DNA from: an uncultured Ruminococcus sp.
GTDB taxonomy: Bacteria > Bacillota > Clostridia > Oscillospirales > Acutalibacteraceae
Assembly: GCA_902774325.1 (NCBI GenBank)
Contig: CACYIC010000001.1
Coordinates: 15,403 to 79,402, forward strand
Reading direction: 5' to 3'
DNA: 64,000 nucleotides
Shown here: positions 14,403-38,989 of the stretch, one piece after another
Layout: the number at the start of each line of letters is the position of its first letter
How positions within the stretch are numbered: position 1 is the first letter of the stretch
Notes under the pieces: model-generated
Database searches by the model: none
The model's input: the letters and a program-made list of their open reading frames with translations, nothing else
Told to the model about the DNA's origin: nothing
Position numbers and translations under genes: made by a program

Positions 14403-15677
14403 ATGAAAGACAGAAGATTTGATTTATTATCCGCGATCGTTTCGTTCGCGGCGGCGCTTATCGTGCTGGTGCCCATGGTCGCGCTTAGTTATTTTTCGGA
14501 GCCTCTGGGCTGGTTCGTTCAGGCGCTCTTTGTGGGACTCACGCTTCCTGTCGCGGCTCTGGCGGGCTTCGGAGCGGTTCATCTGCTCTGCCGTTTAAGG
14601 CGCGGCATGAAAATCGAGCTGCCCGGTTTGTTCACGGGCGGCGGTGCGATCTTCCTCGCGCTGCTGTTCCTCGCGGGAGCCGTCGGACAGATCGTTTATT
14701 CGCTTCATCTTGAGCAGAGGGTCACTTACAGGGAGGAGACCGTCCAAACTACGACTCCTGTCGTCAACGGTCACGCGCCCTGCGACATCGCTCTGCTGAT
14801 CGATTCCTCCGGCTCGATGATCGACAAGACGGATATCGTCGTAAGAGCGTCGGACGCGTTTGTTGACAGCCTTCCCGACTCCGCCGATCTCGCTCTTGGC
14901 ATTTTTACCAGCAAGGTGACTCCGAGCTGGGGACTCAGGAAGATGGACGCCGCGGGCAAGGAGGAAACCAAGAAGAACCTCCGCGAGGACGGAGAGGGCG
15001 CGACTACCGAGATCGCCGAGGCGCTCGAGTGGGCTTACGACACCCTCAGCGCGGCGGACGACGGGACGCGCAATCAGTTTGTGGTCATAGTCACCGACGG
15101 CGTGTCGCCCCTTCATCAGAGCGTAATCGAAAAATACGACAGGACTAAATGCGATATAAAGGTTTATTCCATCCTCACCGTTGACGAGCTTTATGATTCG
15201 TGGCTGGGCGAAAGCGTAACTACAAAGAGGTTCGTCGATTTTGTCGACAGCACCGGAGGCTTCAATTCGGAGGTCAGGACGGGAGACGACGAGGAGGCGG
15301 CGATCGCGGAGCTCACAAAGGTGTTCAATAACATCTCGTCGGAGAATATCACCCCGACAGACAATGTCAAGAGGGTTCGCGAGGTGAGCACCGGACTCGG
15401 CTTTGCCAACGGAACCATCCTTCACGACGATTTCAGCGTCAGGATCTTCGGAATAATCATGCGCTTTGTATTCTTCTTCATCTTCGCGGGGCTTATGCAG
15501 CTCTATTATTTCAGGGATTTCCGCTTGTCAAAGCTCCTTATCTGCCTGGGAGAATCGGCTGTCGCGACGGCGCTCGTCACCCTCGGCGGTATCCTTGGCG
15601 CGGCGATGATCTCGATCATCGCGCTGGCGCTGTGCCTGTTCGCGCTGTTCGCGGTGCTTGAGATCCCGGAATACTGA
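14403..15677 (+). CDS. Membrane protein with von Willebrand A domain
   Basis: 3 N-terminal TMs, MIDAS LLIDSSGSM...T...VIVTDG, 3-4 C-terminal TMs. Confidence 0.85.
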   Translation: MKDRRFDLLSAIVSFAAALIVLVPMVALSYFSEPLGWFVQALFVGLTLPVAALAGFGAVHLLCRLRRGMKIELPGLFTGGGAIFLALLFLAGAVGQIVYSLHLEQRVTYREETVQTTTPVVNGHAPCDIALLIDSSGSMIDKTDIVVRASDAFVDSLPDSADLALGIFTSKVTPSWGLRKMDAAGKEETKKNLREDGEGATTEIAEALEWAYDTLSAADDGTRNQFVVIVTDGVSPLHQSVIEKYDRTKCDIKVYSILTVDELYDSWLGESVTTKRFVDFVDSTGGFNSEVRTGDDEEAAIAELTKVFNNISSENITPTDNVKRVREVSTGLGFANGTILHDDFSVRIFGIIMRFVFFFIFAGLMQLYYFRDFRLSKLLICLGESAVATALVTLGGILGAAMISIIALALCLFALFAVLEIPEY

Positions 15678-35216: not shown

Positions 35217-35730
35217 ACTTCTGACCCGCCGTCGCAGGGGTTTGCGGCTCAACTCAACCTCAATAAAGAGGATAATGCGCTTTTGGCGCTTTTTGCTGGA
35301 ATTAAAAGAGGCGACGCATAAATCAACTTCTGACCCGCCGTCGCAGATGGTCTGCGGTTTATCACAACTTTTAAAAAGGCGGCTGGAGCGCCTTTGGCGC
35401 TTTTTGTGGGAATTAAAAGAGGCGGCGCATAAATCAACTTTTGACCCGCCGTCGCAGGGGGTCTGCGGCTCAACTCAACCTCAAAAAAGAGGATAATGCG
35501 CCCTTGGAGCTTTTTGTGGGAATTAAAAGAGGCGGCGCATAAATCAACTTCTGACCCGCCGTCGCAGGGGTTTGCGGTTCAACTCAACCTCAAAAAAGAG
35601 GATAATGCGCCCTTGGAGCTTTTTGTGAGAATTAAAAGAGGCGACGCATAAATCGACTTCTGACCCGCCGTCGCAGAAGGTCTGCGGTTTATCACAACTT
35701 TTAAAAAGGCGGAGAAAGCGCCTTTGGCGC
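35217..35730. repeat. Tandem array of about 4.7 copies of a 109-111-bp unit, two unit types in order A-B-A-A-B
   Basis: ACTT(C/T)TGACCCGCCGTCGCAG at 35217, 35326, 35437, 35547 and 35656. Confidence 0.95.
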
Positions 35731-35731
35731 A

Positions 35732-37153
35732 TCAGGCGAGGTGCAGAACGTTTATCAGCAGCACCCAGCTCAGTCCGTAGTAGGTGACGACCGCGACGAG
35801 GTCGTTGATCGTGGTGATCAGGGGACCCGAGGCTACGGCGGGGTCGATTTTTATTTTTTTGAAAAACAGCGGGATGGTGGTGCCGACTACGCTCGATATC
35901 ACCATGGCTGTCAGCAGCGACGCTCCGATGCAGCCCGAGACGGCGAAGGCGAAGAAGAAATCCCGTCCTCTGAAAAGCATGATATAAAGTCCCAGAAAGA
36001 CAACCGAAAGCGTGCCGAGGATCAGACCGTTGAAGAAGCCGACCCGCGATTCCTTCGCTACGAGTCTGAATTTTTGCGCGGCGGTGAGGTTTTCATCCAT
36101 CAGGACGCGGATGGTGACCGCCAGCGACTGCGTTCCGACGTTACCCGACATATCGAGGATGAGCGACTGGAACGCCATGATGAGCGTGAGCTGCTCGACG
36201 ACCCTCTCGAACGCGCCGACGACGGTGGAAACCAGTATGCCCAGACCCAGCAGCGCCAGAAGCCAGGGCATGCGCTTTTTTATGCTTTGGAGCAGCGGCT
36301 CCTTCAAGTCCTCCTCGGCGGTAAGACCGGCGAACATCGCGTAGTCCTCGCCGAGCTCTTCATCAACGACCTCGATTATGTTCTGCGCCGTGATGACTCC
36401 GAGAAAGGTATTGCTGTTGTCGAGCACGGGCACGGAGTCCTCCGAATAGTCCTTTAGCTTTTCGATACAATCGTCGATGCTCTCGTGACCGTAGACGTAC
36501 GGGAACGAGGTCGCGATCAGGTTCTCGAGCGGCTCCTCGGGCTTTGCCGTGAGCAGGTCGCGCAGATCGACGGCTCCGTAAAAGGCGCCGCTGTCGTCAA
36601 CGACGAAAAGCGTGTTGAGGTTATCGTTTTCCCTTGCCTGCCTTACAAGCTCGGCGGTAGCCTCTCTTACCGTGAGGTTTTCGCGCAGCACGATGCAGTT
36701 TGTCGTCAGGCGGCTGCCGATCTCGTCCTCGTCAAAGGCGGCGATTATCCTCAGATCGCTGCGCGCCTCGGGATCGAGCTCGTCGATGATGACCGTGCGC
36801 TTTTCGCGTGAGATCTCGCGGAGAATATCAGCCGCGGTGTCGGTCTCGAGCATCGAGATCACTGCAGCTTCTTTTTTAAGATCCATCTCGTCGAGGTAGC
36901 CTACTGCTTCCTTCTCGTCAAGGTGCTCGAACGCCTCGGCGAGCATTTCGACCGTGCATATCCTGTAGAGCTTCTTGCGCTCCGCGACGCTCAGCCCTTC
37001 CATAGTCTGGGCGAGGTCGCTGCCGTGGTAATCCTCGAGCAGCTTCTGCGCCGCCTTGGGGGAGCGGTTGCTTTTGATGATGCCCAGTATCTCGCTTTCG
37101 TAGTCGGGCCTTTCGATTACTTCATTCCCGACCATGGCTTTGTTGTTTTCCAT
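35732..37153 (-). CDS. mgtE: Magnesium transporter MgtE
   Basis: N-terminal repeats, CBS pair, MSGNVGTQS, DPAVASGPLITTINDL. Confidence 0.95.
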   Translation of the reverse strand: MENNKAMVGNEVIERPDYESEILGIIKSNRSPKAAQKLLEDYHGSDLAQTMEGLSVAERKKLYRICTVEMLAEAFEHLDEKEAVGYLDEMDLKKEAAVISMLETDTAADILREISREKRTVIIDELDPEARSDLRIIAAFDEDEIGSRLTTNCIVLRENLTVREATAELVRQARENDNLNTLFVVDDSGAFYGAVDLRDLLTAKPEEPLENLIATSFPYVYGHESIDDCIEKLKDYSEDSVPVLDNSNTFLGVITAQNIIEVVDEELGEDYAMFAGLTAEEDLKEPLLQSIKKRMPWLLALLGLGILVSTVVGAFERVVEQLTLIMAFQSLILDMSGNVGTQSLAVTIRVLMDENLTAAQKFRLVAKESRVGFFNGLILGTLSVVFLGLYIMLFRGRDFFFAFAVSGCIGASLLTAMVISSVVGTTIPLFFKKIKIDPAVASGPLITTINDLVAVVTYYGLSWVLLINVLHLA

Positions 37154-37204
37154 TTTTTGCCCTCCGTTCTACAATATTAGTCATAGAAACGGACAAGCGG
37201 ACGC

Positions 37205-37231
37205 AAAAATACCCCCGTCAAACAGGGGCAT
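37205..37231 (-). terminator. Attenuator-type terminator in the mgtE leader
   Basis: Minus strand ATGCCCCTG-tttga-CGGGGGTAT then T-run, 52 bp upstream of the mgtE ATG. Confidence 0.7.
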
Positions 37232-37325
37232 CGGTTATCGGCGCAGGGAAACGGCGCGAACCGCCGATCCCGTCCGGCCCTCGCCCGACGCTTCCGTTTG
37301 ACCCGTAACTGTCACTGCCGTTCAC
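37218..37325 (-). CDS. Putative 35-aa mgtE leader peptide MNGSDSYGSNGSVGRGPDGIGGSRRFPAPITDAPV
   Basis: RBS GAGGTGA, 5-nt spacer, GTG start; stop TGA lies in the terminator loop. Confidence 0.5.
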   Translation of the reverse strand: MNGSDSYGSNGSVGRGPDGIGGSRRFPAPITDAPV

Positions 37326-37361
37326 CTGCTTCACCTCACTTGATTTAGGATTTACGCCTCC

Positions 37362-37390
37362 ATTGTACCACAAAAGATGATGCTTGTAAA
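37362..37390 (-). promoter_or_regulatory. Sigma-A promoter of the leader-mgtE transcript
   Basis: TTTACA-17 bp-TACAAT with TG extension. Confidence 0.7.
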
Positions 37391-37468: not shown

Positions 37469-37497
37469 TTGAAATAAGCGTCAAAATGTGGTATACT
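37469..37497 (+). promoter_or_regulatory. Sigma-A promoter of gltX-glnS-fabG
   Basis: TTGAAA-17 bp-TATACT with TG extension. Confidence 0.75.
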
Positions 37498-37528: not shown

Positions 37529-38989
37529 ATGGCAGAAAAAACCGTTCGCACACGATACGCTCCGAGTCCGACGGGATTCATGCACGTCGGAAACCTCAGA
37601 ACCGCGCTGTATGAATACCTTGTGGCAAAATCTCAGGGCGGGAAATTCATCCTCCGCATCGAGGATACCGACCGCGAAAGGCTCGTTGAGGGCGCGGTGG
37701 AAATAATCTACGACACCTTGAAGCTCGCGGGACTGCGTCACGACGAGGGTCCCGATATCGGCGGCGATTTTGGTCCCTACGTACAGTCGGAGCGCAAGGA
37801 TATGTACCTGCCTTACGCCGAGCAGCTTATCCGCGAGGGCAAGGCTTACCGCTGCTTCTGCTCAAAGGAGAGGCTTGAGCGGATCCAGAACGAGACCGTG
37901 GGCGGCGGCTACGACCGTCACTGCCGCGAGCTCCCGGAGGAGGAGATCCAAAGGAACCTCGAGGCGGGCGTGCCTTACGTTATCCGCCAAAAAATGCCGC
38001 TCGAGGGCAGCACGACCTTTGTCGACGCGGTTTTCGGCGAGATCACCGTTGAGAACAGCGAGCTGCAGGATCAGATATTGATAAAGACCGACGGCTACCC
38101 CACCTATAATTTCGCGAACGTCATCGACGATCATACAATGGGCGTCACTCATGTTGTCCGAGGCAGCGAGTACCTCAGCTCAACGCCAAAGTACAACCTG
38201 CTTTATGAGGCGTTCGGCTGGGAGCTTCCCACCTATATCCATCTTCCGCTCATCATGGGCAAGGATGAGGACGGCAACGTTTCAAAGCTCTCGAAGCGCC
38301 ACGGCGCGACGGGCTTCTACGACCTGATCGACGACGGCTATCTGCCTCAGGCGATAATCAATTACATCGCCCTGCTCGGCTGGTGCCCCAAGGACAACAG
38401 AGAGATATTCACGCTTTCGGAGCTTGAGAAGGCGTTTGATATCGGCGGCATCAGCAAGTCGCCCTCTGTCTTTGACTACGACAAGCTGTCGTGGTTCAAC
38501 GGCGAGTATATCAAGGCGATGAGCACGGAGGAGTTCACCGCCGCCGCCATGCCCTACTACAAAAGGGTTTTCGGCGACAGGGAAATGCCTTACGAAAAAT
38601 TCGCGGCTATCCTCCAAAAGCGCGTGACTCAGCTCACGCAGATACCCGAAATGCTCGACTTTTTCGCAGGGCTTCCGGAGTACGGCAGGGAGCTTTTCGT
38701 CAACAAAAAGAGCAAGACGAATCTCGAGAACGCCCCGGCGCTTTTGAGAGAGGCTTACGAGCGTCTCAAGGCGCTTCCCGAGTGGAACGCCGACGCCGTT
38801 CATGACTGCCTGATAAATATGGCGGCCGAAAAGGAGCTCAAAAACGGCACGGTGATGTGGCCTGTCCGCATCGCGGCGGCGGGCAAGACCGTAACGCCCG
38901 GCGGCGCGATAGAGATCCTTGACATCCTCGGCAGAGAGGAATCGCTCAAAAGGCTAGAAAAGGGCATGGAAATACTGAAGAGTCAATAA
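37529..38989 (+). CDS. gltX: Glutamate-tRNA ligase
   Basis: RYAPSPTGFMHVGN, RIEDTD, KLSKR. Confidence 0.95.
   Translation: MAEKTVRTRYAPSPTGFMHVGNLRTALYEYLVAKSQGGKFILRIEDTDRERLVEGAVEIIYDTLKLAGLRHDEGPDIGGDFGPYVQSERKDMYLPYAEQLIREGKAYRCFCSKERLERIQNETVGGGYDRHCRELPEEEIQRNLEAGVPYVIRQKMPLEGSTTFVDAVFGEITVENSELQDQILIKTDGYPTYNFANVIDDHTMGVTHVVRGSEYLSSTPKYNLLYEAFGWELPTYIHLPLIMGKDEDGNVSKLSKRHGATGFYDLIDDGYLPQAIINYIALLGWCPKDNREIFTLSELEKAFDIGGISKSPSVFDYDKLSWFNGEYIKAMSTEEFTAAAMPYYKRVFGDREMPYEKFAAILQKRVTQLTQIPEMLDFFAGLPEYGRELFVNKKSKTNLENAPALLREAYERLKALPEWNADAVHDCLINMAAEKELKNGTVMWPVRIAAAGKTVTPGGAIEILDILGREESLKRLEKGMEILKSQ

Follow-up and report, generated by a model that had tools for sequence, protein, structure and literature searches.

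A probable translated-leader attenuator upstream of mgtE in an uncultured Ruminococcus species and its gut relatives

Mg2+ uptake in Firmicutes is textbook territory of the M-box riboswitch, and translation-based sensing of Mg2+ is, to our knowledge, known only from the enterobacterial mgtA and mgtCBR genes. For mgtA, termination of transcription is Rho-dependent. At low Mg2+, translation of the E. coli mgtA leader peptide MgtL aborts no later than residue six, and ribosomes are more readily destabilised when the exit tunnel is unoccupied (bioRxiv 10.1101/2021.02.02.429294). Here we analysed the leader of the magnesium channel gene mgtE in an uncultured Ruminococcus sp. of the order Oscillospirales, which lies in a stretch of 64,000 nucleotides (hereafter, the window) covering positions 15,403 to 79,402 of contig CACYIC010000001.1 (assembly GCA_902774325.1). 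A preliminary description, made from the letters of the window, had proposed that a Pro-rich leader peptide analogous to MgtL controls this gene in place of an M-box. Comparison with relatives makes it very probable that the leader is a translated-leader attenuator controlling mgtE, and the explanation that we find best, with a modest preference, is a leader-peptide transcription attenuator dedicated to one mgtE clade. The full statement, in which translation would lead to termination and Mg2+ would be the signal, seems to us evenly balanced between holding and failing.

The gene downstream of the leader is a bona fide mgtE. Its 473-aa product (ATG at 37153; 35732-37153, minus strand, as for all leader features below) carries MgtE_N, CBS and MgtE domains, as identified by Pfam with E = 5e-32. 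The leader contains an open reading frame (ORF) of 35 codons (37218-37325), which runs from GTG (37325-37323) to TGA (37220-37218) and reads MNGSDSYGSNGSVGRGPDGIGGSRRFPAPITDAPV. Five nucleotides separate its GTG from the very strong Shine-Dalgarno (SD) sequence GAGGTGA (37331-37337), which is complementary to the 3' end of 16S rRNA and near-invariant across 62 aligned leaders. The SD sequence, spacer, start codon and ORF were thus found where the preliminary description had placed them. A homologue search with one genome per species gave 80 loci with MgtE identities of 65-78%, leaving ~280 further mgtE relatives outside the set. These loci come mostly from rumen and other gut metagenome-assembled genomes labelled Ruminococcus, Oscillospiraceae or Clostridia, and three come from the cultured isolates Ruminococcus sp. 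JE7B6, Ruminococcus sp. JL13D9 and Lachnoclostridium sp. MSJ-17. Their upstream regions yielded 69 distinct leaders, each carrying GAGGTGA, five nucleotides, GTG and an ORF of 26-60 codons in a general layout of ~200 nt, and ~11 mgtE orthologues have a plain short 5' untranslated region instead.

Frame 0 of the leader is open for at least 26 codons in 69/69 leaders, and the +1 and +2 frames close earlier in 56/69 and 60/69, respectively. From codon 13 on, where the leaders cannot be aligned, frame 0 never closes within the next 13 codons, while the other frames close in 27/69 and 29/69 leaders. Note that the 69 leaders are phylogenetically related, so that these counts are not independent events; the open-frame stretch is, however, unalignable between relatives. 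Given that the layout of SD sequence, start codon, ORF and terminator recurs in 69 leaders and that only frame 0 is kept open, the arrangement is more than chance. Codons 1-12 (37290-37325) form a conserved N-terminal coding block with the consensus M-[TA]-N-[GS]-D-S-[CYH]-G-[SPGA]-[NKGD]-G-R, in which Asp5 (GAC in 51 leaders, GAU in 18) and Ser6 are invariant, and Gly8, present in 65/69 leaders, is encoded by all four codons (GGG, GGC, GGU, GGA). Within this block the second codon position varies least and the third most, giving the entropy a period of three nucleotides, and the indels between the start codon and codon 12 in the 62 aligned leaders are of 3 and 6 nt only. The C-terminal two-thirds of the peptide are unconserved. 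We conclude that the leader ORF is a real coding frame, which is probably translated judging from these sequence patterns. Conservation of the ORF and a coding bias among relatives had been suggested as checks, and both were borne out by the lack of frameshifts and by the third positions being the most variable.

These properties bear on the idea that the leader is an RNA-only metal-sensing riboswitch, in which Mg2+ or another ligand would shift the balance between antiterminator and terminator, and the ORF would be incidental. Such an element could explain the conserved nucleotides and the covarying long-range helix described below, and it would suit mgtE, which is normally under the M-box, an RNA sensor of Mg2+; furthermore, folding of the leader is somewhat more stable than that of shuffled sequence (z = -2.24). 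We nevertheless regard a pure riboswitch as very improbable because avoidance of stop codons is specific to one frame, frame 0 being held open through unconserved sequence in all 69 leaders. The SD sequence and its distance to the start codon are also conserved, the indels stay in frame, and a conserved core of several helices is missing, the stretch inside the long-range helix being unalignable. In addition, no Rfam family was matched: a search of the whole window at gathering scores returned zero families, M-box included, and a search of the leader at E ≤ 10 returned only three chance-level matches (E 5-7), none of which was the M-box, in agreement with the earlier view that the locus has no M-box. 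A strong sigma-70-type promoter (37362-37390), consisting of TTTACA (37390-37385), a 17-nt spacer and TACAAT (37367-37362), matches the consensus at 10/12 positions and has TG directly 5' of the -10 box, confirming the promoter noted earlier upstream of the ORF, and the predicted transcription start is at ~37355. Promoter-like sites were found in 56/66 related leaders, and they end a median of 25 nt 5' of the SD sequence; therefore, there is no space for an aptamer ahead of the ORF.

We also examined where the M-box occurs, taking as a member any match to the RF00380 covariance model at the gathering score of 44 bits. None was found in the genome from which the window comes (hereafter, the host genome) or in 24 sampled genomes of the same genus, and the same scan gave matches of 100-144 bits in the control genomes and in three genomes of other families. 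The proposal that this leader stands in place of an M-box therefore agrees with the missing M-box in the host genome and these 24 congeners. The three copies outside the genus (L154-L156, in genomes G035, G033 and G040; 100-144 bits) belong to three other families of the same order. In G040, the M-box (C48:1900-2056) lies upstream of that genome's mgtE match (C48:2305-3630); in G033, it lies at C1:86733-86887, upstream of an mgtE match (C1:87528-88385) that reads as a pseudogene with five in-frame stops. The host genome has a second mgtE paralogue, 28% identical (G000:C2:35663-36946, locus L114), and a search of that region against Rfam gave no match.

The ORF leads into an intrinsic terminator (37205-37231), which consists of a stem (37231-37223 with 37217-37209) and the U-tract UUUUU (37209-37205); the hairpin 37231-37209 has an energy of -13.8 kcal/mol, and both hairpin and U-tract are present as the preliminary description had them. 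Terminators were called in 66/69 leaders, some of these calls being doubtful (21 were set aside in one analysis); the folding analyses used 51 leaders with a confident terminator. On the alignment, the terminator helix is 87.8% paired and shows covariation, and it is included in the full-length minimum-energy fold of 46/51 leaders. The UGA stop codon of the window lies in the terminator loop. This feature, which had been seen as part of the design, exists in the host sequence but is a minority arrangement among relatives: it occurs in ~5/51 leaders, host included, where the UGA is that of a conserved UGAC, which pairs with GUCA. Measured to the terminator's first base, the stop codon lies at 12-18 nt in 24/51 leaders, where the values cluster, with a range of -18 to +44. 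What is conserved is that the ORF covers most of the loop enclosed by an antiterminator helix.

This helix emerged when each leader was folded as a nascent transcript ending in the terminator loop, with the 3' arm still to be made. In these nascent folds, codons 8-12 of the ORF are the pairing partner of the terminator 5' arm and loop, and the helix encloses the rest of the ORF. At least 5 bp between the terminator 5' half and the window of codons 6-15 were formed in 40/51 leaders, and a sliding-window scan placed the best partner of the terminator 5' half at 0-11 nt past the first base of the Asp codon in 35/51 leaders. On the alignment, the helix (columns 47-58 with 218-228) is 76.6% paired compared with 29-54% for slid-partner controls, and 0/500 shuffles matched the observed pairing or covariation score. 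For instance, the pair 50-226 is seen as UA, GC, AU, GU, UG and CG, as in UCA:UGA, GCA:UGC and ACA:UGU. Duplexes of native 5' and 3' partners have a mean energy of -18.8 kcal/mol versus -15.3 ± 0.4 kcal/mol when partners were permuted among species, and none of 5000 permutations was as low. RNAalifold, when given the raw MAFFT alignment, predicted hardly any structure, since the leaders cannot be aligned in their middle part, and per-sequence folding with explicit pair counts was used as a substitute.

In the window, the antiterminator 5' strand extends beyond codons 8-12 through codon 14 (37285-37302) and consists of GUCAAACGG (37302-37294) and GCGUCGG (37291-37285). The 3' strand (37217-37234) consists of CCGAUGC (37234-37228) and CUGUUUGAC (37225-37217), and shares nucleotides with the 5' arm and loop of the terminator and with the base that opens its 3' arm. 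The two segments, GUCAAACGG/CUGUUUGAC and GCGUCGG/CCGAUGC, together give -23.3 kcal/mol. The spacing between the antiterminator 5' strand and the terminator is ~60-130 nt among leaders and ~70 nt in the host. A different pair of mutually exclusive helices had been proposed before, namely AUCGGCG (37268-37262) with CGCCGAU (37243-37237), which gives -10.4 kcal/mol, and GGGAUCGG (37271-37264) with CCGAUGCCC (37234-37226), which gives -10.6 kcal/mol. Both pairings exist in the sequence at these positions, but the second is much weaker than the helix with codons 8-14 (-10.6 vs -23.3 kcal/mol), and neither is the conserved switch. Imposing the second helix raised the folding energy by ~9 kcal/mol over that of the nascent minimum-energy fold, and even then the conserved outer helix formed; we rejected the second helix as the switch. 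Covariation of stems, suggested earlier as a check, is seen in the terminator helix and the codon 8-12 helix; those earlier pairings are not conserved. The first copy of CAAACGG (codons 2-4) was also considered as a second antiterminator strand and discarded, since the terminator 5' half was not its preferred partner (13/51). Judging from these comparisons, the conserved switch is the pairing of codons 8-12 with the terminator 5' arm and loop, mutually exclusive with the terminator, and its dependence on the ribosome is predicted.

Part of the conserved block lies outside this helix, which raises the possibility that a trans-acting RNA-binding protein, acting in the manner of TRAP or PyrR, reads the 5' block RCAAACRGYGAYAGUYRYGGG and picks antiterminator or terminator, with the ORF being translated but not serving as the sensor. 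About 20 near-invariant nucleotides do fall outside the antiterminator helix, and they include a consensus direct repeat (ACAAACGGCGA and UCAAACGGGCGA; CAAACGG occurs twice, 21 nt apart, and is partial). Moreover, the codon of Ser6 is AGU in 66/69 leaders and never UCN. The block varies, however, with a three-nucleotide periodicity and by conservative amino-acid exchanges (T/A, N/S, G/S), the repeat is missing from several subclasses, and next to the locus we saw no gene for a candidate regulator, the neighbour on the upstream side being gltX. We therefore consider such a protein improbable.

Codon 7 (37305-37307) is YRY (Cys/Tyr/His) in 62/69 leaders, Cys (UGY) being the commonest. YRY at this position is the exact wobble complement of GUG, be it that of the start codon or that of the SD sequence, and a weak hairpin of codon 7 with the start codon (GUGRC...GUYRY) or the SD GUG may tune initiation. 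Asn, Asp and Tyr/His codons recur in the conserved block, and a role of queuosine-modified tRNAs reading NAY codons was considered but dropped, Cys (UGY) being the commonest at codon 7. Five representative peptides searched against Pfam and NCBIfam at E ≤ 10 matched no family and gave only chance rpoC fragments. A released small membrane regulator such as MgtR or MgtS was likewise rejected, as the C-terminal two-thirds are unconserved and contain no transmembrane-length hydrophobic segment.

On the basis of these pairings, we propose the following course of events. On a ribosome-free nascent transcript, the antiterminator would form first, and RNA polymerase would read into mgtE. Translating ribosomes, when at codons ~4-16, would cover codons 8-12, and they would next move into the enclosed loop and unfold it; the long-range helix being prevented in this way, the terminator would form and mgtE would be switched off. 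If initiation on the leader or early elongation were poor or aborted, the antiterminator would persist and mgtE would be transcribed. The expected and physiologically sensible inducing condition is low Mg2+, which destabilises 70S ribosomes carrying very short nascent chains, and the conserved N-terminus, with its small residues and invariant Asp-Ser, may render early elongation especially sensitive to Mg2+. Such an N-terminus is compatible with the idea of early abortion, for which E. coli MgtL is a precedent. What we infer in this scheme is its polarity, the role of Mg2+ as signal and whatever part the peptide sequence may play.

Several points weigh against this scheme. The conserved peptide has one acidic residue and no Pro, and so departs from the known DE/P destabilising motif. 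Constraints on the RNA account for some of the N-terminal conservation, codons 8-12 forming a helix strand and codon 7 being a wobble complement of GUG. The support is comparative and thermodynamic throughout, and the polarity is predicted from thermodynamic folding only. Contigs from metatranscriptomes were too sparse for mapping of 5' or 3' ends; one 151-nt piece spans the ORF and terminator, and it could be read-through RNA or contaminating DNA. In the ~5/51 leaders whose ORF runs into the terminator loop, the host included, a closely placed ribosome would melt the terminator, and in 11/51 leaders the nascent fold lacks the antiterminator helix. Furthermore, transcription and translation are reportedly poorly coupled in Bacillus subtilis; with loose coupling, mechanisms based on ribosome position would depend on pausing of the polymerase, and the NusG-type pause motif TTNTTT was not enriched before the terminator (9/51 leaders vs 7/64 control windows).

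The same elements could also work with the opposite polarity, as in trp or erm leaders. A ribosome paused in the loop past codons 8-12, for example at a Pro-Pro pair conserved in one subclass or at the Pro-rich end of the host peptide, would then free the antiterminator strand and cause read-through, and termination would result from an unhindered ribosome reaching the stop beside the terminator, or from an untranslated leader adopting alternative local pairings. This scheme is the nearest to the earlier MgtL analogy, in which Pro codons would slow the ribosome at low Mg2+. It agrees with the ORF always spanning the loop and usually ending 12-18 nt before the terminator, like the trp leader stop beside segment 2, and with a K/Q-P-P-H/N motif common to ten leaders at ~codons 20-22. 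In addition, mid-leader windows, which are transcribed earlier, also pair with codons 8-13, with a median best energy of -13.3 kcal/mol vs -15.9 kcal/mol for the terminator 5' half. On the other hand, the conserved peptide block sits on or just upstream of the antiterminator 5' strand, where a held ribosome would block antitermination, and ribosome-free nascent folds already contain the antiterminator in the 40/51 leaders mentioned above, and no conserved anti-antiterminator was found. Pro is, moreover, unconserved beyond the one subclass and the two closest relatives. These points make the opposite polarity unlikely.

The distribution of Pro bears directly on the analogy with MgtL. The Pro-rich C-terminus, from which that analogy had been drawn, proved to be confined to the host genome and its closest relative (L034), and the conserved N-terminal part is Pro-free. 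The idea of a leader peptide acting as an MgtL-like switch therefore survives as far as a translated ORF coupled to an intrinsic terminator before mgtE is concerned, but its Pro-rich basis and its pairings do not. The ten leaders with the K/Q-P-P-H/N motif (L062, L063, L068, L069, L073, L074, L075, L083, L086 and L088) form a subclass that has two additional codons at the N-terminal end and in which a longer stretch of the peptide is conserved, ...GDSCGGKCES/DxTxSKPPHG..., with the Pro-Pro pair and two Cys. A more speculative version of our preferred scheme, in which translation favours termination, assigns the sensing to the early peptide itself: its first 8-12 residues (small residues, Asp-Ser, Cys/Tyr/His, Gly) would be a nascent-chain sensor, with which the ribosome stalls on the antiterminator strand at sufficient Mg2+ and drops off or does not elongate at low Mg2+. 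The leader would then be a Gram-positive-type, independently evolved counterpart of MgtL with an intrinsic terminator and a different peptide chemistry, a proposal that we hold as doubtful for now.

The leader is exclusively linked to one mgtE clade. A sequence-only model (R1) built from the block between the SD sequence and codon 13 matched 38/222 species genomes of the genus, once per genome, and all of the 30 matches that were fetched lie directly upstream of an mgtE orthologue (30/30). In an order-wide scan of 401 evenly drawn genomes, the host genome was the sole match. Weak R1 matches (L116-L123) were taken as spurious, as they are not near mgtE. Of the 24 sampled same-genus genomes, 5 have an MgtE orthologue (56-72% identity), as does one genome from a different family of the order. 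A distant variant from another family (L007) appears to keep the layout, with a 6-bp match of codons 10-12 to the terminator 5' arm as found by hand. BLAST with the leader DNA returned no homologous leader and only two matches of 35-46 nt, on contigs without mgtE, because the leader diverges too fast for nucleotide search. In all, the element is carried by ~70 species-level genomes of cattle-gut and other gut bacteria.

Downstream of the terminator, a conserved hairpin (37163-37193), which most related leaders also have, pairs the anti-SD sequence UCCGUU (37193-37188) with the mgtE SD region AACGGA (37168-37163). The unpaired probability of the mgtE SD is <0.3 in 37/50 related leaders, and the stem sequence varies, being GUCCGUU/AACGGAGG in most relatives and CCCUUUCUAU/AUAGGAGGG in others. 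This anti-SD hairpin may be a second, translational layer of control. The possibility that the freed 3' arm of the terminator opens the mgtE SD hairpin was rejected, as the calculated SD accessibility does not differ between the two states (0.20 vs 0.21). On the other side of the leader, a divergent promoter-like site (TTGAAA, 17 nt, TATACT, with TG; 37469-37497, plus strand) would serve gltX (37529-38989, plus strand), and a 375-bp intergenic region is common to this site and the mgtE leader promoter. Directly 3' of the mgtE stop codon, ~5 tandem units of 110 bp (~35217-35730) lie between convergent genes.

Full-text literature searches on mgtE and leader peptides, attenuation or ribosome stalling returned no description of this element. 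If our reading is true, a gut Oscillospirales lineage without the M-box independently reached a leader-peptide solution for mgtE, in an intrinsic-terminator design where one conserved block both encodes peptide and serves as antiterminator strand. The element would raise the questions of how ribosome occupancy is read out where coupling of transcription and translation may be loose, and whether a Pro-free short nascent chain can report Mg2+. The ~70 natural variants and three cultured carriers are a resource for such questions, and genome annotation gains an unannotated small ORF and a class of cis-regulator.

Compared with classical attenuators, namely those of trp and his, the ilvB upstream ORF (uORF) of Corynebacterium and the erm/cat type, the mgtE leader has the same promoter-proximal small ORF, intrinsic terminator, mutually exclusive antiterminator and stop codon near the terminator; the ilvB uORF motif has been described in the same terms (PMC11109978). 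It differs from them in that the leaders have no consistent runs of regulatory amino-acid codons beyond scattered Gly, Ser and Asn, and in that the gene encodes a cation channel. Moreover, the conserved N-terminal coding block contains the antiterminator 5' strand, the enclosed loop is traversed in full by the ORF, and translation here likely favours termination. SRC-65-1, a riboswitch candidate known as the 'mgtE motif', is a structured RNA restricted to Thioalkalivibrio, a genus of Gammaproteobacteria; it is likewise a non-M-box candidate cis-regulator before mgtE, but it sequesters the SD sequence and AUG of the main ORF and has no uORF (PMC11109978); it is unrelated to our leader in sequence and in host lineage. 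The M-box (ykoK, RF00380) resembles the leader in regulating mgtE through an intrinsic terminator versus an antiterminator, and other families of this order have it ahead of mgtE. However, the leader has neither a match to the covariance model nor a multi-helix aptamer, and is filled by a translated ORF.

The closest parallels are MgtL of mgtA in Salmonella and E. coli and MgtP/MgtM of mgtCBR, where a short leader ORF also precedes a Mg2+ transporter gene and its translation picks between alternative RNA structures that decide transcription. The proposed signal would also be alike, that is, a Mg2+-dependent failure of very early elongation (bioRxiv 10.1101/2021.02.02.429294), if the mgtE leader responds to Mg2+ as we suggest. 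There is, however, no sequence similarity to MgtL, nor any NCBIfam or Pfam match, and the EPDP motif and Pro codons of MgtL stand against a Pro-free block with a single Asp here. The terminator is intrinsic, the regulated gene encodes the channel MgtE and not a P-type ATPase, and the host is an anaerobe of the gut, of Gram-positive type, that shows no sign of being controlled by PhoPQ. The mgtE leader thus has the features that define a leader-peptide attenuator and departs from MgtL in its lack of a Pro/acidic motif, its lack of homology and its intrinsic terminator. The element is a variant of leader-peptide attenuation, neither a relative of MgtL nor an M-box, and as a cis-regulatory class it has good comparative support.

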